Shown here piece by piece: positions 11,496-62,083 of a stretch of 64,000 nucleotides of DNA; the first letter of the stretch is position 1, and the number at the start of each line of letters is the position of its first letter. A model generated the notes under the pieces. It worked only from the letters and a program-made list of their open reading frames with translations. It was not told the origin of the DNA and ran no database searches. Made by a program: the position numbers and the translations under genes. Location of the stretch: positions 65,272-129,271 of the forward strand of contig JAPPGG010000043.1 of assembly GCA_028875055.1 (NCBI GenBank), written 5' to 3'. The DNA comes from Chloroflexota bacterium (lineage in GTDB: Bacteria > Chloroflexota > Dehalococcoidia > Lucifugimonadales > UBA3495).

Positions 11496-13766
11496 TTGAG
11501 CACCACAATCTTCAAGAAAGTAGATTATGAGCTATCGGGTTTAGTCAATGACATTGGTATAGGAAGAATAGGATTACCCGACATTCAACGCCCCTTTGTA
11601 TGGAGGAATGTTAAGGTTCGGGACTTGTTCGATTCCATGTACAAGGGATTTCCGGTAGGTTATCTGCTTCTTTGGGAAAATGGCACGGGAGATGGCAACC
11701 GCCATATAGGTACAGACAGCAAACAAGTTGCCCCCCAATTGGTAATCGTTGATGGACAGCAGCGCCTTACGTCTCTTTATGCGGTCGTCAGGGATGTACC
11801 GGTGTTGCGGGAAAATTATCGCTCCGAAAACATTCGCATAGCCTTCAACCCCGTCGAGGAAAAGTTTGAGGTCACTAATGCCGCCATCCGCAGGAATAAG
11901 TCCTACATTCCAGATATTTCACAAGTTTGGAGCAATGAAACAGATATATTTCAGGTAGTTGACGATTACCTAGAAGGACTCAGAACTTTACAGGAAGTTT
12001 CTCGTGAGGAGCAGGCAAGAATCAGGAGTTCATTCATAAGGCTTCAGGGACTTAGCAGCTTCCCTTTTACTGCATTGCAGTTGGATGCCAACGTATCGGA
12101 GCAGGATGTGTCCGACGTTTTTGTCCGCATCAACAGTCAGGGTGCTACGCTTAATCAAGCGGATTTCATTCTGACCTTGATGTCCGTGTTCTGGGACGAA
12201 GGGCGGTCCGAGCTGGAGGAGTTCTGTCGCCAGGCCCGTCAACCTACGAGTTTGGGACAGAGTTCTCCTTTCAACTACTTCGTAGAACCCTCCCCTGATC
12301 AGTTGCTTCGAGTTAGTGTAGGAGTTGCCTTTAAGCGAGCCAGATTAGAGTACATTTACTCAATACTCCGAGGAAAGGACCTTGAAAGCGGTGAGTTTAG
12401 TGATGCCCGCAGAGACGCCCAGTTTGACTTGCTAAAGGCGTCCCAAGCCAAGGTCTTGAATTTAAACCACTGGAAAGGGTTCTTGGCTTGCATCCGTCAG
12501 GCTGGCTTCCGGAGCCGTCGCAACATAATGTCTCAGGTCGCACTCTTTTATTCCTACGTGTTATACCTAATAGGAAAGACTGAGTGCCGGGTTGAAGAAC
12601 AAACTTTGCGCCGCCTTATTGCTCAATGGTTCTACATGGCGTCCCTTACTGGTCGATACACCGGAAACTCAGAGACAGCTATGGAAGCCGATCTGGCTTT
12701 GCTTCGAGGGGTCACTGAACCCGAGAGATTTGTCGAACGTCTTCGGAGTGTTTGCGCCACAGTTTTGACTAACGACTTTTGGAATGTTACTTTGCCCAAT
12801 AGCTTGGCAACTCAAACGGCCCGGAGCCCTTCTCTCTTTGCTTATGAGGCTTCGTTGGTTCTTTTGGACGCCAAGGTTCTGTTTTCCGAGGCTAAAGTCT
12901 CTGAATTGCTGGACCCGGTAGCTCAGGGAACCAGGGCGGCCTTGGAACGCCATCACTTGTTTCCTAGGGCTTACCTCGAAAGACAGGGGATATCTGGAAC
13001 TCAGCATTCTAATCAGATTGCGAATTTCGCCTACCTGGAATGGGGTGATAACGTTCGAATTTCTGATCGACCGCCCGCAGAGTATGTTCCCACGGTAAGC
13101 GAGAATTTCCGTGCCGATGAGCTGAGCAGAATGTACTATTGGCATGCTCTACCCAATGGCTGGGAAACCATGGCCTACGAGTCTTTCTTGCCATTGCGTC
13201 GTGACTTAATGGCAAAAGTTACCCGGGAAGGCTACCAGCGCCTGTCCGTTTGGGATGGGGAAGAAGAGCCTGATCTGCCTGTCAATGTGGCTACTGGAAC
13301 ATACGAATTAGTAGAGAGCGGGGAAACAGACGCCGTAGAGTTCAAGTCCACACTACGCACCAACCTGCGAACCAACAGCAAAGACAGCCGAATGGAACAA
13401 ACCGTGCTGAAAACCTTAGCTGCTTTCTTGAACACAAACGGAGGAACGTTGCTAATCGGTGTGGCAGACGATGGTGCTCCAGTGGGTATTGAAGCAGACG
13501 GGTTTTCCAGTGAAGACGATATGAGCCTACACTTGGTAAATATTGTCAACAGTCGTATGAGCCCTCAGGCTATGGCACGAACACACGTTAGCTTCGACGA
13601 TTATGAGGATGTGCGGGTAATGCGAATAAATTGCCAGCGGTCGATGGCTCCCGTATATGTTAGAGAGAATAGCAACGAATCTTTCTTTATTCGGACGGGA
13701 CCTTCATCTCGTGAACTAACAATCAGTGAAGCTCAAGACTATATTGCTCACAGATTTAGTTCCTAA
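11496..13766 (+). CDS. GmrSD-like DUF262/DUF1524 nuclease fused to a C-terminal AlbA_2 (Schlafen-type) domain; putative type IV restriction or defence enzyme
   Basis: DIQRPFVW and VDGQQRLTSLYAV (DUF262). ERHHLFPRAYL...NQIANFAYLEWGDN (His-Me/DUF1524-like). C-terminus DAVEFKSTLRTN...LAAFLNTNGGTLLIGVADDGAPVGIE (AlbA_2). TTG start after GGAAGGTGGG. Clearly lower GC than the flanks. Confidence 0.8.
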   Translation: MSTTIFKKVDYELSGLVNDIGIGRIGLPDIQRPFVWRNVKVRDLFDSMYKGFPVGYLLLWENGTGDGNRHIGTDSKQVAPQLVIVDGQQRLTSLYAVVRDVPVLRENYRSENIRIAFNPVEEKFEVTNAAIRRNKSYIPDISQVWSNETDIFQVVDDYLEGLRTLQEVSREEQARIRSSFIRLQGLSSFPFTALQLDANVSEQDVSDVFVRINSQGATLNQADFILTLMSVFWDEGRSELEEFCRQARQPTSLGQSSPFNYFVEPSPDQLLRVSVGVAFKRARLEYIYSILRGKDLESGEFSDARRDAQFDLLKASQAKVLNLNHWKGFLACIRQAGFRSRRNIMSQVALFYSYVLYLIGKTECRVEEQTLRRLIAQWFYMASLTGRYTGNSETAMEADLALLRGVTEPERFVERLRSVCATVLTNDFWNVTLPNSLATQTARSPSLFAYEASLVLLDAKVLFSEAKVSELLDPVAQGTRAALERHHLFPRAYLERQGISGTQHSNQIANFAYLEWGDNVRISDRPPAEYVPTVSENFRADELSRMYYWHALPNGWETMAYESFLPLRRDLMAKVTREGYQRLSVWDGEEEPDLPVNVATGTYELVESGETDAVEFKSTLRTNLRTNSKDSRMEQTVLKTLAAFLNTNGGTLLIGVADDGAPVGIEADGFSSEDDMSLHLVNIVNSRMSPQAMARTHVSFDDYEDVRVMRINCQRSMAPVYVRENSNESFFIRTGPSSRELTISEAQDYIAHRFSS

Positions 13767-16656: not shown

Positions 16657-16853
16657 CAGGGCAGTCGCGCTTTAATTGAATGTCATGCTGAGCGAAGCCG
16701 AAGCATCTAAAATCTATCCCTGGAACCAACTTCACTACCCGCAACCGCCCTGAAGAGAAGGACTATAGGCCCTTCGGCAGGCTCAGGGCGACATGACTCT
16801 TGCCTACCGAATTTGTGCCCCCTATAGCCAGAATCTATAACGCCTTTGCCCTG
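16657..16853. repeat. MITE-like repeat, family A (197 bp), copy 1
   Basis: Termini CAGGGCAGTCGCG ... CGCCTTTGCCCTG. Internal gtcatgctgagcgaagccgaagcatc pairs with cttcggcaggctcagggcgacatgac. Near-identical to 46457-46653. Confidence 0.85.
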
Positions 16854-20014: not shown

Positions 20015-20226
20015 TTATCTACTGAAAGACTTCCTGGGCAGTCCTGATTGACGAATCATGCTACTGAGTGTCCCCGCTTTAATATCCTGGTTCCGTCGAG
20101 AGTAGCTTACAGTGACTGACTTTCGCTGCCCGTTAACGTAACCTTCGTATATGTGATGAGATCCTCTCTGCTATCAAGGTGAAAACCGTTAACTACCAAT
20201 ATATCCACGAACCTGCCATAACTCAC
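20015..20226 (-). pseudogene. hicA: HicA-like mRNA-interferase toxin gene with a 1-nt deletion frameshift
   Basis: Own translation. GTG at 20226 overlaps the upstream stop (GTGA) and gives VSYGRFVDILVVNGFHLDSRE, then goes out of frame. The adjacent frame reads RGSHHIYEGYVNGQRKSVTVSYSRRNQDIKAGTLSSMIRQSGLPRKSF*. Together they form the HicA pattern (GF.l.rq.GSHH.y ... GTL..I.kq.GL). The 212-nt length is not a multiple of 3. The shift lies near 20166-20175. Confidence 0.65.
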
Positions 20227-20624
20227 GTCGTAGCATATTCAAAAGTTTCCTGGACAGTGCCTTTCGGCCCATTGTTGGAAACAGGTCTGAGGAGGCCAGT
20301 TATCCTGGACAACAGCACCAACTTAATGCGAATGGCAAGGGGAGAGCGACGAGTCAAGAACTTCAAACGCTCATGTTGTGGAAGGGAGTGAACGTATTCC
20401 ACATAAGTTTCAATGGCGCCTTTTAGCTGCTCAAAGGCCTCCTCATAGGTTTCGCCTTGGGCGGCTATATCAAAGTCCACGCAAAGAGCTTCCCATTCGT
20501 CATCGCTTCGCCAAAGGTAACACTTGAGAACAGTGCTTACCACAGCAAAAACCTCCGGTCGCGTATCTGTGGGGGGATCTCCCGCCGCAAGAGTTATCTT
20601 GCCAACTTCACGCGTTGATTCCAC
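20223..20624 (-). CDS. hicB: HicB-like antitoxin-fold protein (UPF0150/HicB N-terminal domain)
   Basis: KCYLWRSDDEWEALCVDFDIAAQGETYEEAFEQLKGAIETYVEYV matches the HicB beta-alpha fold pattern (..GeT.eEA..n..eAie). GTG start after AAGGAAAGG. Lower-GC neighbourhood. No obvious RHH/HTH tail. Confidence 0.6.
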   Translation of the reverse strand: MESTREVGKITLAAGDPPTDTRPEVFAVVSTVLKCYLWRSDDEWEALCVDFDIAAQGETYEEAFEQLKGAIETYVEYVHSLPQHERLKFLTRRSPLAIRIKLVLLSRITGLLRPVSNNGPKGTVQETFEYATT

Positions 20625-20755: not shown

Positions 20756-21112
20756 CTACACCAGAAGGGCGTCGGTGGGGATTAAGCGCTGGCCCGCGGG
20801 GTCAACCGCCAGGAGGGCGCGCTCCAAGGTGTAGACGCCCAGCAGCGCATCGGCGTTGTCATCTCCGAAGACAACCACGGTGTTAACGATTTGACCCTCG
20901 AGGCGAACCTGGGTTTCACCGATGGCCCGCTGTATTGTGGATCCGTTTGCCAGGCGGAACCTGACGTTTTCGGTGGGTTGGACGCCCAGATTGCGAAGCA
21001 AAGTTGCGGGTACCTGCGTGAAGGTAGCTCCGGTGTCAACCAGGGCCATTACTTCCTGGAACTCGCTGGCGTTGGGGCCAGTGATTTCCAACGGGTAATG
21101 GAAGATGCTCAT
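20756..21112 (-). CDS. Single-domain retropepsin-like (clan AA) aspartyl protease
   Basis: ALVDTGATFTQVP contains the D-T-G-A active-site motif. About 118 aa, consistent with a homodimeric half-pepsin. An upstream ATG at 21136 is also possible. Confidence 0.7.
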   Translation of the reverse strand: MSIFHYPLEITGPNASEFQEVMALVDTGATFTQVPATLLRNLGVQPTENVRFRLANGSTIQRAIGETQVRLEGQIVNTVVVFGDDNADALLGVYTLERALLAVDPAGQRLIPTDALLV

Positions 21113-21155
21113 CTCAAACCTCCGCAGGGTATCCACATTATAGCATTGCGGCAGC

Positions 21156-42387: not shown

Positions 42388-42583
42388 CAGGGCAATTGCA
42401 CTATGGAAACAGGCTACAGGGGGCACAATTCGGTGGGCAGATGTCATGTCGCCCTGAGCGTGCCGAAGGGCCTGAAGTCCTCATCCTCAGCCCGGCTGCG
42501 GGTAGTGAAGGTGGTTCCAGGGATAGATCTTAGATGCTTCGGCTTCGCTCAGCATGACATTCAATTAAAACGCTATTGCCCTG
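42388..42583. repeat. MITE-like repeat, family A, copy 2 (inverted orientation)
   Basis: CAGGGCAATTGCA ... CGCTATTGCCCTG. The interior is the reverse complement of copies 1 and 3. Confidence 0.85.
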
Positions 42584-46456: not shown

Positions 46457-46653
46457 CAGGGCAATCGCGTTTTAATTGAATGTCATGCTGAGCGAAGCCG
46501 AAGCATCTAAAATCTATCCCTGGAACCACCTTCACTACCCGCAGCCGGGCTGAGGATGAGGACTTCAGGCCCTTCGGCAAGCTCAGGGCGGCATGACTTC
46601 TGCCTACCGAACTGGCGCCCCCTGTAGCCTGAATGCATAACGCGATTGCCCTG
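46457..46653. repeat. MITE-like repeat, family A, copy 3 (197 bp)
   Basis: Perfect 13-bp terminal inverted repeat CAGGGCAATCGCG ... CGCGATTGCCCTG. Confidence 0.88.
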
Positions 46654-48902: not shown

Positions 48903-48967
48903 TTTCCAACTGTGTATAATCTTTGTAGGTCTCCAATTGGGGTATCGCCCTTCCACCAGGCTCAGTT

Positions 48968-50170
48968 ATGTTGCTAAATTCGATAAAGATTAATGGAATG
49001 CTTTCCTTCCGAGATGTGGAACTTGAAATGCGTCCATTGAACGTCCTGGTAGGCCCCAATGCTTCGGGGAAGTCAAACTTCATCGAGATTATGGCACTCC
49101 TGCAGGCCTTGCCCAGGGACATGGCGTCCTTCTTCCGGCAATCTGGAGGAATTAATGACTGGTTTTGGAAGGGACAAGGAAAGTTCTCACCCCATTACTC
49201 CACATGTTCCGTGGAAACAGTTCTGCAGCACCAACTCGACCCTTTGCAACTCCGCTACCGGTTATTTCTGGAGCAATCTGGTCAGCAATGGTGCGTTTTA
49301 CGGGAAGAATTGGACGAGGAAGTGCGGTTAGGCCAGGGCCAAGTAGAGTCGTCCAGTCTGTTTAAGCTTATAGACGGAACCGGCAACCTGGCGGTGAGAC
49401 AATCGCCTGAGTCCACCCGGGATCAAGAGTTCAGTTTCATCCGTCAGGGGGATTTGACTGCCGGTCAGTCAATTCTGCGGGAGAGAAGAGACCCTGGCCT
49501 TTATCCCGAAATGCACTTCTTGAGCCAGCAGTTTGACTCAATCCGGCTGTACCGGGACTGGAACATGGGGCGTAACAGTTTCATTCGCCGCCCCCAACCT
49601 ACAGATGCGCCCACCGCCCACCTATACGAGGATTTTTCAAATTTGGCCCTGGTACTGAATCGGTTGCAGCGGGAACCGGTTATGCCAACAATTGAGAAAC
49701 AGCTTGGCCAATTCTACGAAACCTACGAAAGCTTGGGAGTGGATATTTTTGCTAACACCGCCCAATTGTGGATTCGGGAAAAGGGCCTGGCCAACCCGGT
49801 GCCCGCAACCCGACTCTCCGACGGCACCCTCCGCTTCCTGGCCCTGCTTTCCATTCTTTGTCATCCCTATCCTCCGCCTTTGGTCTGCATAGAAGAACCG
49901 GAACTGGGCCTGCACCCCGACGTAATTCACCAGGTCGCCAAGTTACTGATTGAGGCCTCCCAACGCACCCAAATAATAGTCACAACCCACTCGGCGGAGT
50001 TGATTGACCATCTTTGGGAAGATACGGAGAGTGTTGTTGTCTGTGAACGCTACCCGGATAGCGGGACCGAGTTCAATAGGTTAAAGAAGGAAGAGCTCGA
50101 GTCTTACCTGGAGCGGTACAAGTTAGGGGAACTGTGGTTGCACGGGCATATTGGGGGAACCAGGTTCTGA
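48968..50170 (+). CDS. ABC-type (AAA_21/AAA_15-like) ATPase, defence-associated type
   Basis: Walker A GPNASGKSN, signature-like LSDGTLRFLAL, Walker B LVCIEEPELGLHP, H-loop TTHS. GC lower than the flanks. Confidence 0.75.
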   Translation: MLLNSIKINGMLSFRDVELEMRPLNVLVGPNASGKSNFIEIMALLQALPRDMASFFRQSGGINDWFWKGQGKFSPHYSTCSVETVLQHQLDPLQLRYRLFLEQSGQQWCVLREELDEEVRLGQGQVESSSLFKLIDGTGNLAVRQSPESTRDQEFSFIRQGDLTAGQSILRERRDPGLYPEMHFLSQQFDSIRLYRDWNMGRNSFIRRPQPTDAPTAHLYEDFSNLALVLNRLQREPVMPTIEKQLGQFYETYESLGVDIFANTAQLWIREKGLANPVPATRLSDGTLRFLALLSILCHPYPPPLVCIEEPELGLHPDVIHQVAKLLIEASQRTQIIVTTHSAELIDHLWEDTESVVVCERYPDSGTEFNRLKKEELESYLERYKLGELWLHGHIGGTRF

Positions 50171-50761
50171 ATGGCGATAGCTGTCAGGGTATATTTCGAG
50201 GGAGACCGGAGCCTGCGAATAGGGTTCAGTAAGTTCTTTGAAGGGTTGAGACTGCCCGGCATCAGAATTGCCCCGGTGCCTTGCAAGGCCAACGCCATAG
50301 CCGATTTTATGTCCGGCCTGAAGAGCTATCCCGAGGCGGTTAATGTCCTATTGATCGACGCCGAGAAACCGTATGCCGCCAATCTCTTTCAGGAAGTTCG
50401 TCAACATGACCACTGGGACTACGCCACAGGTTCAAATATATCTGACGACCGTATCCACTTCATGGTGCAGGTTATGGAATCCTGGTTTCTGGCTGACAAG
50501 CAAGCCCTCAGCGCTTATTATGGTCGAGCTTTCTCGGCTAACCGCCTCCCTGCCAATTCGGCCATCGAGGAAATTCCCAAAGATGACGTGCTGAGCGGGT
50601 TGGCCGAAGCCACAAGGGCCACCACTAAAGGCCGGTATCACAAAACTAACCATGGTCCCCGCTTGTTGGAAGCCATAGACCCTGCCAAGGTCTGCGCAGC
50701 CGCGCCCAACTGTTCACGCCTGTTTGATTTCCTGAATTCTCTCGTCTCACAATCCCCGTAA
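50171..50761 (+). CDS. DUF4276-like protein (possible Toprim-like nuclease partner)
   Basis: 196 aa. ATG directly abuts the ATPase stop (TGAATG). VYFEGD, LLIDAE and ESWFLAD acidic motifs. DUF4276 assignment is from memory. Confidence 0.55.
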   Translation: MAIAVRVYFEGDRSLRIGFSKFFEGLRLPGIRIAPVPCKANAIADFMSGLKSYPEAVNVLLIDAEKPYAANLFQEVRQHDHWDYATGSNISDDRIHFMVQVMESWFLADKQALSAYYGRAFSANRLPANSAIEEIPKDDVLSGLAEATRATTKGRYHKTNHGPRLLEAIDPAKVCAAAPNCSRLFDFLNSLVSQSP

Positions 50762-50780
50762 GTCGAAAAGGAGGCCCCCT

Positions 50781-52211
50781 ATGACCACCAACCGCAGCGA
50801 CCGGCACGTGGATACCATTGTCGTCGGAGGTCGGATTGTTACCTCCTCCCAGGTTTATGAGGCCTCCATTGCCATTGACGGAGGGGAAATCGCCGCCATT
50901 GGGCCGGAAAATCTGCTGCCCCCGGCCGACAAGTACATTGACGCCTCGGGAATGTACGTGCTGCCCGGGCTGATTGACTGCCACGTCCACCTGGACGGCC
51001 ACGACAACTATGCCCTGGGGTCGCTGGCGGCCGCCCACGCCGGCCTGACCACCCTGGTCCCCTTCGGTACCTACAACCTGGAGGGCGACGAGACCCTGCC
51101 AGAGGCCATCAACCGCTGCCGCGAGGAAGTGGAGCGTACGGCGGTTACCGACTTCGCCTTCCATTTCATCCTGCAGAACCGCCCCAGCATCCTGAACAGC
51201 CTGCCCGAGGCGCTGGAAATGGGCGTCAAGTCGTACAAAATGTTCATGACTTACAAGAAGCGCCCCTACCGCATGTGCGACGACGACTATATCTGCGAGT
51301 CAATGGAAATGGTGGCGAAGGGCGGCGGGGTGCTGCAGCTTCACTGCGAGAGCGGCAACATCATCGAGTACCTGGAGAACAAGCTGCTGTCGGAGGGGCA
51401 CACCCACCCCACCGACTTCCCGTCGGCCTGCCCCGACTGGGCCGAGGAGGAGGCCATCAACCGGGCCATAAAGATGGCCGGGGCAACCAACTGCCCCACC
51501 TACGTGGTGCACCTCAGCACCCAGCTGGGCCTGGAACGAATCAAGCAGGCTCAGGCCCTGGGACAGCGCATCTGGACCGAGTCCTGCCCCCAGTACCTGC
51601 TGCTTTCCGACGAGGAAATGGCCAAGTACGGCCCCTTGGCCAAGATCGGCCCGCCCCTGCGTCCGGCCGACGGCCCGGACCAGGACGCACTGTGGCGCGG
51701 CCTGGAACAGGGACACATCTCCATCACCGCCAGCGACCATGCTCCCTACCCCCAGGAGCTGAAACAGGTGGGGTGGGACAACATTTTCGTGGACGTCAAC
51801 GGCGCCTCGGTTCCCTTCGGGTCCCCGGGCGTGGAGACCCTGGTGCCCCTGATGTACAGCGAGGGCGTGGTGAAGCGGGGACTGCCCATCTGGTGGCTGG
51901 CGCGGGTAATGTCGGAGAACCCGGCTCGCATCTTCGGCCTCTACCCCCGCAAGGGAGTTATCCAGGTGGGCTCCGACGCCGACCTGTTGATACTGGACCC
52001 GGGGAGCGACCGGATCATTACCTCCAGGGACCACCGCAGCAACGCCGGCTACACCCTCTTTGAGGGCTGGCAGGTGCAGGGACGCCCCCACATGACCCTG
52101 TTGCGGGGAGAGGTTCTGCTCAACCAGGGAGAACTGGAACAGCAGCCCGGCTACGGCAGCTTCCTGGAAAGCGGTTCACCCCGTTCACCCCTGGGCGGTC
52201 CGGTGAGGTAG
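50781..52211 (+). CDS. Cyclic amidohydrolase (dihydropyrimidinase/hydantoinase/dihydroorotase superfamily)
   Basis: GLIDCHVHL metal motif, VKSYKMFMTYKK (carbamylated-Lys region), HCES, ASDHAP. GC about 70% on a sampled line. Confidence 0.85.
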   Translation: MTTNRSDRHVDTIVVGGRIVTSSQVYEASIAIDGGEIAAIGPENLLPPADKYIDASGMYVLPGLIDCHVHLDGHDNYALGSLAAAHAGLTTLVPFGTYNLEGDETLPEAINRCREEVERTAVTDFAFHFILQNRPSILNSLPEALEMGVKSYKMFMTYKKRPYRMCDDDYICESMEMVAKGGGVLQLHCESGNIIEYLENKLLSEGHTHPTDFPSACPDWAEEEAINRAIKMAGATNCPTYVVHLSTQLGLERIKQAQALGQRIWTESCPQYLLLSDEEMAKYGPLAKIGPPLRPADGPDQDALWRGLEQGHISITASDHAPYPQELKQVGWDNIFVDVNGASVPFGSPGVETLVPLMYSEGVVKRGLPIWWLARVMSENPARIFGLYPRKGVIQVGSDADLLILDPGSDRIITSRDHRSNAGYTLFEGWQVQGRPHMTLLRGEVLLNQGELEQQPGYGSFLESGSPRSPLGGPVR

Positions 52212-52215
52212 GGGC

Positions 52216-53781
52216 CTACGCTCCCCTTTGTCTCCAAGAAGTAATTTGCTCTTGGAGTAAAGTAAGGAACGTAAGCCCCTCCCCATGGGTACGTTCCGCT
52301 TCTCGTTTACCCACTAAGCGGGCAATATCGGAGGGAGTTCTGCCAATTTCTCGGGAAAGTTCTTCTACCGCGACTTTAGCCGGGTCCTGTTGCTGGACCA
52401 TTCCAGACGCCAACTGTTGAATATTGCGCATTCTTTCGTCTAAGTCGGATACTCCGATTCCTAGATCCAAGGCATATTCTGATTTCCATTCTTCCAGAAC
52501 ATCCCAAATCCAACCCTCGGGCGGCCCATCTCCCGGCAAGAACAAGGGCTGTAAGGTTGCGTGATATTCAGAGGCAGCCGTCAAGAGGTCAGTTTCTTTT
52601 GACTTGGAATCACCATCGAGGACAACCAGGAAATCGTCAAGTTTGCCAAATTTCCCAAGCGTGCGGATATGTGCGGGGAATTCATCCCTTCCTGTGTCTC
52701 TTCCGATGACTACATCATCGTGTCGGAGTTCAAGCCTTAAGTTCAAGACATCAAGAAATCCTCTGATAATGCCTTCCGCAATTTGATCTTCACAAAGGAT
52801 AGAGAGTTGTTCTCGAGATTGTCCGTATAGAGCCTTTTGCAAAATATCTCGATACGGTGGTACGAGTCTGACTTCTGCAGAATCCTCGTCCCTATCCAAG
52901 AAGAGCCGAGCCTCTTCAGGTACACTCTCAAGTACAACAGGGCTGTGAGAGGCCACTATTATTTGTAGACGGTTCCTCAATGCTATGCGCTGAAACTCCA
53001 GCATAGCCTGTTGTTGAGTATATGGATGAAGGCCTGCTTCTACCTCGTCGATAAGTATAAGTGCATCCGTCAGACTAGAAATGTCCTTCGATATCCGGAG
53101 TATGGCTCTTTCGCCTGAAGACATGTGGAACTCAGAGTATTTCGCCGCACTTGTTCCCTCTAATTCTGCAAAGAGCAAGTCCCGTGTTTGCGTCGTTATT
53201 CTGGAAAGAGCTCGGTATCTCCTCGGCAAAATACGATGAGCGAATATTAGCAAGTCTTCAGTAATTTGCTCAGTGGAGAGTTCCTTTCTTGCTAGTTGAA
53301 GAATACTTCGTACTTCAGATGGATTAGTCAGGTTCGCTAGGGTTCGCATATAAAGCTGTCGTTCAGGTTGCTCACCACCTTTTCTTCCCATGAAGCTTCG
53401 ATTCCACGATTTACCTCGCCTCCACATCATGGATATACGCTCATTTTCATGTAGGTAATGGAACTCTATCTCTGTCTGACCTGCAACGTCCTCAAATTCA
53501 GTGCCCCCTCCTTTGAAATTCGGGAATAGACTGGATGGCACATAATCCCTTGGGCCGCGGTCAGGAACCACATAAGCACATGCACATCCAAATAGCACTG
53601 TGGACTTGCCGCATCCGTTAGGACCTGCGAGAACAGAAACAGGATAATTGAATGGAATTCTAAGATCTTTTATCCCTCTCAGATTCCTAATTCTGATCTC
53701 AGCTAGTGACTTGGTACGCTGGTTACCCTGCGCTCGCAAAGCATCCCACACTTCGTGAAGTTGTCTATCCAATAGTGGCAT
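52216..53781 (-). CDS. OLD-family-like fused ABC ATPase-Toprim protein
   Basis: Walker A GPNGCGKST, signature MSSGERAILRI, Walker B LILIDEVEAGLHP, ASHSP. C-terminal Toprim-like LCEDQIAEG ... VVLDGDS. About 38% GC on a sampled line. ATG 53781 preferred over GTG 53790. Confidence 0.7.
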   Translation of the reverse strand: MPLLDRQLHEVWDALRAQGNQRTKSLAEIRIRNLRGIKDLRIPFNYPVSVLAGPNGCGKSTVLFGCACAYVVPDRGPRDYVPSSLFPNFKGGGTEFEDVAGQTEIEFHYLHENERISMMWRRGKSWNRSFMGRKGGEQPERQLYMRTLANLTNPSEVRSILQLARKELSTEQITEDLLIFAHRILPRRYRALSRITTQTRDLLFAELEGTSAAKYSEFHMSSGERAILRISKDISSLTDALILIDEVEAGLHPYTQQQAMLEFQRIALRNRLQIIVASHSPVVLESVPEEARLFLDRDEDSAEVRLVPPYRDILQKALYGQSREQLSILCEDQIAEGIIRGFLDVLNLRLELRHDDVVIGRDTGRDEFPAHIRTLGKFGKLDDFLVVLDGDSKSKETDLLTAASEYHATLQPLFLPGDGPPEGWIWDVLEEWKSEYALDLGIGVSDLDERMRNIQQLASGMVQQQDPAKVAVEELSREIGRTPSDIARLVGKREAERTHGEGLTFLTLLQEQITSWRQRGA

Positions 53782-53964
53782 ACCTTTCACCTTCTCTTGA
53801 ACTGACCTGGGGACGTAGCCGAGAACTAAATGTCGTCGGAGTTAAGGGCCCTCAAAAGTCAAGCCGACATCCATTGATCATCTCTATTATAACGAAAACG
53901 CCCCCGGACCAAATGGTCCGGGGGCGTTTTGCTTGACCGGTTAAACGGTAAAGGGGTCGGCTGC

Positions 53965-61887: not shown

Positions 61888-62083
61888 GGTGCTATCGCAT
61901 GAGTGAGTAAATTGTCATTCTGAGCTTGCCGAAGAATCTAAACTCCTCCCCACCAACTGGCTTTCGGACCCGTAGCGAGGCCGTGGGGAAGGATTTCAGG
62001 CCCTTCGGCAAGCTCAGGGCGACATAGCTTTGCCTTGCGGATATTAGCCGACTGCAGGACGAATCTTTCATGCGATTGCCCTG
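61888..62083. repeat. MITE-like repeat, family A, copy 4 (divergent)
   Basis: gtcattctgagcttgccgaagaatc ... ggcccttcggcaagctcagggcgacat ... tgcgattgccctg. Same layout and length as the other copies. The left boundary is approximate. Confidence 0.65.

Follow-up and report, generated by a model that had tools for sequence, protein, structure and literature searches.

A HEC-01 ATPase–DUF4276 gene pair at a chromosomal hotspot of uncultured Chloroflexota, a candidate split OLD-like anti-phage system with a mosaic ATPase

What is a small, low-GC, two-gene cassette doing between housekeeping genes of an uncultured Chloroflexota bacterium? The cassette lies in a 64,000-nucleotide stretch (hereafter, the window) of a genome of the Dehalococcoidia (Lucifugimonadales, UBA3495; GenBank assembly GCA_028875055.1, contig JAPPGG010000043.1, positions 65,272 to 129,271). 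It comprises an open reading frame (ORF) for an ABC-type ATPase (ORF1, 48968..50170, 400 amino acids) and one for a DUF4276 protein (ORF2, 50171..50761, 196 amino acids); both genes, and the motifs within them, are on the plus strand. The stop codon of the first and the start codon of the second abut (TGAATG at 50168-50173), and GC content is 52-54% over 48.8-50.8 kb, compared to ~60-68% in the flanks (~64% for the surroundings). An original prediction made from the sequence alone had described two directly adjacent ORFs of reduced GC joined by TGAATG. The coordinates, junction and GC contrast were all reproduced, and every motif that it listed is present (Walker A, signature, Walker B, TTHS, VYFEGD, LLIDAE and ESWFLAD). 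We find that the cassette belongs to the catalogued candidate anti-phage system HEC-01, and suggest that it probably acts as a stand-alone, two-gene, split OLD-like defence system in which the ATPase is the sensor and the DUF4276 protein is a nuclease effector.

Family identity comes from both genes. ORF1 is HEC-01A (PADLOC PDLC04177, E=3.1e-139; residues 1-400 align with positions 3-393 of the 393-position model) and ORF2 is HEC-01B (PDLC04201, E=4.9e-54; residues 5-191 align with positions 4-199 of 202), the only PADLOC model that ORF2 matches at E<=0.01. The Pfam check proposed with the original prediction returned AAA_21 for ORF1 (E=9.8e-37, full length) and DUF4276 (PF14103) for ORF2 (E=1.4e-18, 68.3 bits versus a gathering threshold of 30.2), each above its gathering threshold. 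The ORFs are not chance, because the matches to the hidden Markov models are full length (3.1e-139 and 4.9e-54) and the Pfam scores exceed these thresholds. HEC-01 was defined by Payne et al. as an ABC ATPase plus a TOPRIM protein, embedded in Hma systems (bioRxiv 10.1101/2024.01.29.577857), and in some environments few candidate defence systems are reported to be more abundant (10.1101/2024.09.26.614923). The cassette is an added member of this known candidate family, not a new kind of system. According to the original prediction, the ATPase and DUF4276 pair is not known to have an experimentally defined function. This is still true of mechanism, as our literature search found no published biochemical mechanism for HEC-01, but the pair was already catalogued and phenotype tests of it have been reported. 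A MANTIS preprint (10.64898/2026.09.23.753747), checked for any ABC ATPase/TOPRIM module, was unrelated.

HEC-01A is identified as an AAA_21 ABC-type ATPase by PADLOC, Pfam, and Foldseek searches with an AlphaFold2 (AF2) model. Across a 46-sequence homologue alignment, key invariant residues fall in four motifs: Walker A GPNASGKSN (residues 29-37, 49052..49078; G29, N31, G34, K35, S36 and N37), the ABC signature LSDGTLRF (residues 283-290, 49814..49837; S284, D285 and G286), the Walker B and D-loop segment LVCIEEPELGLHP (residues 305-317, 49880..49918; E309, E310, P311, E312 and H316), and the H-loop TTHS (residues 339-342, 49982..49993; T340 and S342). The AF2 model (pLDDT, the predicted value of the local distance difference test, 89) includes an all-beta insert at residues ~79-158. 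Foldseek places the model near PtuA (of Septu and retron Ec78/Eco7), the class 1 OLD structure 6P74 and the heads of SMC and Rad50, with E~1e-13 and template modelling (TM) scores of 0.45-0.57, and matches to PDB entries at the sequence level are only motif-sized (OLD, retron-Eco8 OLD, GajA and AriA). Given that the model is equally near PtuA, OLD, SMC and Rad50 heads, ORF1 is therefore a generic SMC/Rad50/OLD-type ABC head without a specific solved relative. The Pfam and Foldseek matches bear out the proposal that ORF1 is an ABC-type ATPase of the AAA_21/AAA_15 kind.

HEC-01B was characterised by PADLOC, Pfam, AF2 and Foldseek, and is predicted to consist of a Toprim core and, after it, a helical region. 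In Pfam, DUF4276 is matched by each of the 42 aligned homologues. Within this alignment (36-78% identity), E10, G11, D63, E103, D109 and K158 are invariant, and every sequence shown has D or E at position 65 (DAE in ORF2; DSD, DSE or DAE in the others). The motifs VYFEGD, LLIDAE and ESWFLAD occupy residues 7-12, 60-65 and 103-109, respectively. The AF2 model (pLDDT 95.5) has a beta1-alpha-beta2-alpha-beta3-alpha-beta4-alpha core (strands at residues 3-10, 31-38, 57-64 and 95-99; helices at 15-24, 42-52, 71-77 and 102-108), in agreement with the four-stranded parallel beta-sheet and flanking helices that typify the Toprim superfamily. In the PDB, Foldseek gives high-probability matches only to the catalytic C-terminal regions of class 2 OLD nucleases (6NJX and 6NK8; probability 0.99, TM 0.46-0.48, aligned over the whole length), with GajA among the weaker matches (rank 18). 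In a library of viral structures, the top match is a phage RloB-like protein (probability 1.0, TM 0.50). DUF4276 was previously assigned to the Toprim superfamily and identified as a homologue of MADS Mad4 (PMC12065111).

The conserved residues of HEC-01B follow the order of an OLD-type active site. E10 (50198..50200) is the last residue of beta1, where Toprim domains have their glutamate, and D63-A-E65 (50357..50365), the local form of a family-wide Dx(D/E), closes beta3, where they have the DxD. E103 to D109 (ESWFLAD, 50477..50497) begin the helix after beta4 and are proposed to provide second-metal ligands by analogy with E508 of Burkholderia pseudomallei OLD (BpOLD), and K158 (50642..50644), in the helical region, may be the counterpart of the catalytic K562 of that enzyme. 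In BpOLD, the catalytic set is E400, D455xD457, E508 and K562, all within a C-terminal region that is ~205 residues long, and E508 belongs to the helical domain's first helix (PMC6755086). The order of the invariant residues is the same in ORF2, with spacings of 53/40/55 compared to 55/53/54. Because of the OLD match in Foldseek, this shared order, and the similar spacing and size, we read HEC-01B as a predicted free-standing OLD-type catalytic region. The Toprim-like E...DxD site suggested in the original prediction thus has a counterpart in the predicted fold, in E10 and D63x(D/E)65, and in the OLD-like and RloB-like structural matches, and its assignment of ORF2 to DUF4276 was correct. The C-terminal tail of HEC-01B varies across the family. 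Separately, we noted that identity to the closely related locus L001 dips to 62-77% at 50654-50833, a segment that covers the last ~35 DUF4276 codons and the 19-nt spacer before the start of the amidohydrolase gene.

How did the pair come to be at this site? The nearest genomes are uncultured Chloroflexota/Dehalococcoidia metagenome-assembled genomes, and comparison with them reveals two adjacent variable sites. The first, bounded by a 5'-3' exonuclease (FEN-like) gene and by an amidohydrolase gene, holds HEC-01 in the window, in L001, L004 and L005, and in the metagenome contigs L082 and L083. The same site is empty in L085, where ~45 nt and a ribosome-binding site separate the FEN-like and amidohydrolase genes. 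In L081, whose flanks are 91-97% identical to the window at the protein level, it carries two minus-strand, low-GC genes instead: one encodes an Exo_endo_phos protein (L081 7908-8783, 291 amino acids, Pfam 2e-7) and the other a 147-amino acid protein without a family (L081 8860-9303). This pair has no PADLOC match, and may be an uncatalogued defence or toxin pair. The site between the FEN-like and amidohydrolase genes is a hotspot that holds HEC-01, other cargo or nothing in related genomes, and the cassette was horizontally acquired. Searches for direct or inverted flanking repeats and tRNA genes as marks of integration found none around either this insertion or the neighbouring one.

The neighbouring insertion occupies a second slot, which has the amidohydrolase gene on one side and an SBP_bac_5 gene on the other. 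In the window, this slot holds a minus-strand gene for a HEC-04-like ABC ATPase fused to an OLD-type Toprim domain (52216..53790, a 524-amino acid ORF; PADLOC HEC-04, 3e-39), with a probable start at the ATG at 53781 that would yield 521 amino acids. The gene is in its own islet of 46-47% GC, 1.4 kb downstream of the HEC-01 pair. Its invariant residues are K59, D245/E246, H279, E331 and D389xD391, and these include the Walker A lysine, Walker B and the H-loop. L005 and L082 have a homologue in the same slot, whereas the slot is empty in L004 and L081. In L001, the slot instead holds a GmrSD_N/DUF262 protein gene (NsnA 1e-66, PD-T4-2_A 2e-42) and an overlapping HEPN_RiboL-PSP gene, both on the minus strand (L001 10060-10626 and 10559-11638). 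The conserved right edge of the slot is marked by a perfect 17-bp hairpin (53895..53930, no strand assigned) that is also present in L004 and is probably the terminator of the SBP gene. Homology of the window to L001 and L004 resumes at 53897.

The ATPase gene is itself a mosaic. Compared to L001, sliding DNA identity of 92-97% falls to 33-81% between ~49100 and ~49890, a tract of ~codons 45-307 (49100..49890, plus strand) that extends from the Walker A helix to Walker B. The number of synonymous substitutions per synonymous site (dS) follows the same pattern. Five flanking genes have values of 0.15-0.29 and the DUF4276 gene has 0.16, and ATPase codons 1-44 and 308-400 are at 0.32-0.34 (97-98% protein identity). 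In contrast, dS is saturated over codons 45-192, where protein identity is 67% then 33%, and ~2.2 over codons 193-307 (84% protein identity), with a ratio of nonsynonymous to synonymous substitution rates (dN/dS) of ~0.05. By identity comparison, the hypervariable part is an insert at residues 69-192 (49172..49543, plus strand) that is largely all-beta, with strands between residues 79 and 158. This insert has only 31-37% amino acid identity to relatives with cores that are 78-90% identical, and core and insert identities are decoupled across 118 homologues (e.g., 91/86, 92/65 and 91/28). The breakpoints are thus near 49100 and 49890. The simplest reading is that the centre of the ATPase gene was replaced homologously by a long-diverged allele, with the nucleotide-binding gene ends, nuclease gene and flanks kept. 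Replacement of the whole ATPase gene, considered when the protein was partitioned into residues 1-68, 69-192 and 193-400, was ruled out by the sliding-identity scan, which restricts the exchange to the central tract.

Inserts in the ABC ATPases of ATPase plus TOPRIM systems have been proposed to set trigger specificity (10.1101/2024.01.29.577857; PMC11464382), and replacement of the centre of this ATPase agrees with that idea. The mosaic pattern is the one feature of this locus for which we found no description in HEC-01. Tentatively, the central ~260 ATPase codons may constitute an exchangeable specificity cassette that is swapped between alleles by homologous recombination at a fixed hotspot. 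If so, the alleles in the window and in L001 are natural domain-swap experiments with which to locate trigger recognition in split-OLD systems, and the conserved ends of the ATPase gene would be a likely surface for nuclease docking.

The pairing of the two genes is widely conserved. A scan of one genome per species, based on two peptide patterns, identified 395 loci with a relative, which is a lower bound, and the best 80 of these at least 395 loci span at least 10 phyla (Chloroflexota/Dehalococcoidia, Acidobacteriota, Planctomycetota, Longimicrobiales, Myxococcota, Cyanobacteria, Nitrospirota, Actinomycetota, Gammaproteobacteria and others). In 79 of the best 80, the next gene upstream is co-oriented and encodes an ATPase homologue; in the 80th, the contig extends only 29 nt upstream. 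Thus, the neighbour conservation that the original prediction had called for is seen in 79 of 79 testable loci. The ATPase alignment ends between -6 and +57 nt from the DUF4276 match in these 79 loci, and the start and stop codons of the HEC-01 pair abut or overlap. At 50% identity, the DUF4276 profile collects 2,563 clusters, of which 873 reach E<=1e-30. The best 150 relatives are all stand-alone proteins of 162-236 amino acids.

So, is the cassette a defence system? We suggest that the 400-amino acid ABC ATPase would be the sensor and regulator of the pair, with its exchangeable centre, including the hypervariable all-beta insert, recognising a cue of infection. The ATPase could hold the nuclease inactive, or license it through ATP binding or hydrolysis, by analogy with AriA and AriB of PARIS. 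Triggering would then release nuclease activity on phage or host nucleic acid, either DNA or RNA (tRNA is a candidate), with the 196-amino acid DUF4276 effector using OLD-type two-metal catalysis via E10, D63/E65, E103 and K158. In a study of cold-seep microbes, one HEC-01 representative was reported to give E. coli B protection from one or more of the phages T4, T5 and T7 (10.1101/2024.09.26.614923, PMC12881386). Association of HEC-01 with other defence genes across other phyla is modest. Neighbouring ORFs (128, flanking HEC-01 in 32 loci) matched 131 PADLOC families at E<=1e-10, compared to 6 for 119 control ORFs, and the matches include Type I, II and IIG restriction-modification (RM), SIR2, NsnA and PD-T4-2.

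A number of observations weigh against this interpretation. The HEC-01 representative of Payne et al. gave no protection against the phages tried (10.1101/2024.01.29.577857). A defence role for the present locus is a prediction, and a complex of the two proteins and a sensor role for the insert are likewise proposals. A strong defence-island enrichment, as the count of 131 versus 6 might imply, was rejected as overstated. The Pfam tally indicates that few proteins are behind the count (N6_Mtase occurs in 2 of the 128 neighbouring ORFs) and that most neighbours are housekeeping genes, so the defence-island association anticipated in the original prediction is visible in the family counts but is due to few proteins in a mostly housekeeping context. 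Searches with ORF2 (tblastn) of phage and plasmid collections found no relative. The link of ORF2 to Toprim is structural only, via a predicted model, and TM scores of 0.46-0.50 are borderline. Pfam searches of the 42 homologues at E<=10 returned no Toprim, Toprim_Old, DUF4435 or RloB match, and only noise (E>=0.27) came back when the PDB was searched with a sequence profile from the DUF4276 alignment. Alignment of the DUF4276 profile to the Toprim region of the neighbouring HEC-04-like protein by hhalign gave no support (probability 0.1-1.3%). The classical Toprim glycine after beta2 is G in most homologues, but K39 in ORF2 and its closest relatives. Finally, the suggested equivalence of ORF2 and BpOLD residues comes from residue order and secondary structure, not superposition.

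Other functions for the pair can be envisaged, each of which is less well supported than a PARIS-like sensor and effector. The ATPase may instead follow the logic of Gabija and OLD and sense nucleotide levels or DNA ends, not a phage protein, with a constitutively assembled nuclease that is restrained by ATP and freed upon phage-caused nucleotide depletion. The ATP-binding and hydrolysis motifs are all invariant, the ATPase model is as near class 1 OLD 6P74 and PtuA as anything else, and GajA is among the weaker ORF2 matches. However, a hypervariable, exchanged module is unexpected in a nucleotide sensor and better suits a variable, phage-encoded ligand, and the two proteins are separate polypeptides here, unlike in GajA and OLD. 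We consider this mode of action unlikely. Foldseek matches to SMC and Rad50 heads equal those to defence ATPases, and a 5'-3' exonuclease (FEN-like) gene adjoins the cassette, as might be expected were the pair a housekeeping DNA repair or recombination system like SbcCD/Rad50-Mre11 or RecF/RecN. But the ATPase lacks a coiled-coil, GC content is atypical, the distribution is patchy (the L085 site is empty and the L081 site has other cargo), neighbourhoods in other phyla are unrelated, and there is a hypervariable insert with allelic exchange. We regard such a role as very improbable.

HEC-01 was first found embedded in Hma systems, DUF4276 is a Mad4 homologue, ORF1 weakly matches mad3 models (PADLOC 1.6e-22; NCBIfam 84 bits), and Type I RM genes neighbour HEC-01 at a few loci. 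These facts raise the question of whether the pair, inactive alone, depends on a larger system based on methylation (MADS Mad3-Mad4, Hma or Type I RM), of which it would be an accessory or embedded part. Here, however, the neighbours are FEN-like and amidohydrolase genes, no methyltransferase, helicase or other mad gene occurs nearby (other mad genes and methyltransferases were sought over 44-56 kb), and the NCBIfam MAD3 score is far under the cut-off of 420. Given also that neighbours are mostly housekeeping genes in the 32 loci, and that one HEC-01 was reported to be active when cloned alone, dependence on such a system seems improbable. We give similarly little weight to the possibility that the pair is a selfish, toxin-antitoxin-like addiction module, in which a nuclease toxin is checked by the ATPase and kept by post-segregational killing instead of host protection. 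The Pfam description of AAA_21 reads 'putative AbiEii toxin, Type IV TA system', and the cassette is a small, horizontally acquired islet of tightly coupled genes, but synteny is stable in L001, L004 and L005 although the flanking DNA is only ~77-90% identical, and the pair was not found on plasmids or phages in the collections searched. Toxin-like behaviour can, however, coexist with abortive-infection defence.

Upstream of the cassette, an intergenic region (48903..48967, plus strand) that is alignable with L001 marks the beginning of the low-GC tract, directly after the stop codon of the FEN-like gene. It contains a perfect TATAAT hexamer (48915-48920) without a -35 match, which is weak evidence for a possible -10 element. 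Scans for sigma-70 promoters and terminators found nothing beyond shuffled expectation, and no Rfam family was matched anywhere in the window.

Elsewhere in the window, we noted a repeat of ~197 nt that resembles a miniature inverted-repeat transposable element (MITE), with terminal inverted repeats CAGGGCAAT...ATTGCCCTG and no Rfam family match. Copies occur at 42388-42583 (+), 46457-46653 (-) and 16657-16853 (-), with a partial copy at 61913-62025 (-), and are 74-92% identical to the first. They are absent at the orthologous positions in L001 and L081, and two inverted copies bracket permease and M28 peptidase genes. A 756-amino acid GmrSD-like protein is encoded at 11496-13766 (+) in an islet of ~50% GC at 12-14 kb, the third defence-like insertion of the window. 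It matches HEC-05 (BrxU-like; PADLOC E=6e-31) and combines the DUF262 motif 'DGQQRL' with an HNH-like 'ERHHLFP' and an additional C-terminal domain. Another islet, of ~52% GC, contains two small minus-strand ORFs (20223-20624, 133 amino acids, and 20756-21136, 126 amino acids) with no PADLOC match.

That the cassette exists, and what it is, comes as no surprise. The value of the locus is in the uncharacterised mechanism of HEC-01, the hotspot and the mosaic sensor. HEC-01 is reported to be abundant, yet the published phenotype tests disagree. The locus offers a clean natural context, with one site that is occupied, empty or otherwise filled in close relatives, and intragenic recombination separates a variable, putative sensor segment from the conserved ATPase core and nuclease. 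This leads to testable predictions regarding how specificity diversifies in ATPase-plus-Toprim systems (PARIS, OLD, Gabija, AbiL and MADS3-4).

How, then, does the cassette compare to known systems? Both proteins match HEC-01 over their full lengths, and architecture, gene order and gene coupling are alike. However, the present copy stands alone between housekeeping genes, without a helicase or methylase nearby, instead of being embedded in Hma, and its host is from an uncultured Chloroflexota lineage, unlike those of the published representatives. For those representatives, there is one negative and one positive phage assay, neither of them mechanistic. Component logic is shared with HEC-04, a fused ABC ATPase-TOPRIM protein in which defence requires Walker A and E/DxD residues (10.1101/2024.01.29.577857), and the HEC-04-like gene that shares the hotspot has conserved catalytic residues. 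HEC-04 is a single fused gene, however, and its Toprim has no detectable profile-level relation to DUF4276.

MADS3-4 and AbiL are listed among ABC ATPase plus TOPRIM pairs (PMC11464382). In MADS, the DUF4276 protein is Mad4 and the AAA-type ATPase is Mad3 (PMC12065111, PMC11464382), whereas ORF1 scores 84.3 bits against NCBIfam MAD3, for which the cut-off is 420. AbiL (AbiLi AAA_21 ATPase and AbiLii RloB) is likewise a two-gene combination of an ATPase and a small Toprim-superfamily protein. ORF1 matches AbiLi at 2.1e-25, but the HEC-01A match is far stronger, and although the top viral structure for ORF2 is RloB-like, ORF2 has no Pfam RloB match.

The putative catalytic half of the pair can be compared to the class 2 OLD nucleases and GajA of Gabija. 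The whole of the ORF2 model is alignable with the catalytic C-terminal region of OLD (6NJX, 6NK8), the size is similar (196 versus ~205 residues), and the invariant E, DxD/E, E and K occur in the same order, but ORF2 has no detectable sequence-profile similarity to OLD or GajA. In OLD classes 1-3 and GajA, the ATPase and Toprim are in one polypeptide, compared to two ORFs here, and Gabija includes a UvrD-like helicase partner, GajB, that has no equivalent in the cassette. In being split, the pair instead resembles PARIS (AriA ABC ATPase and AriB DUF4435 Toprim; class 4 OLD). ORF2 is DUF4276 rather than DUF4435, with no sequence-level match to AriB and no AriB model among its PADLOC matches, and ORF1 matches AriA only via the generic AAA_21 model and motif-level PDB matches. 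Nevertheless, both systems encode an AAA_15/21-type ATPase and a small Toprim nuclease (a predicted one in the case of HEC-01B) in tandem, and both combine poorly conserved ATPase surfaces for trigger recognition, putatively so here, with a conserved effector (PARIS: PMC11464382).

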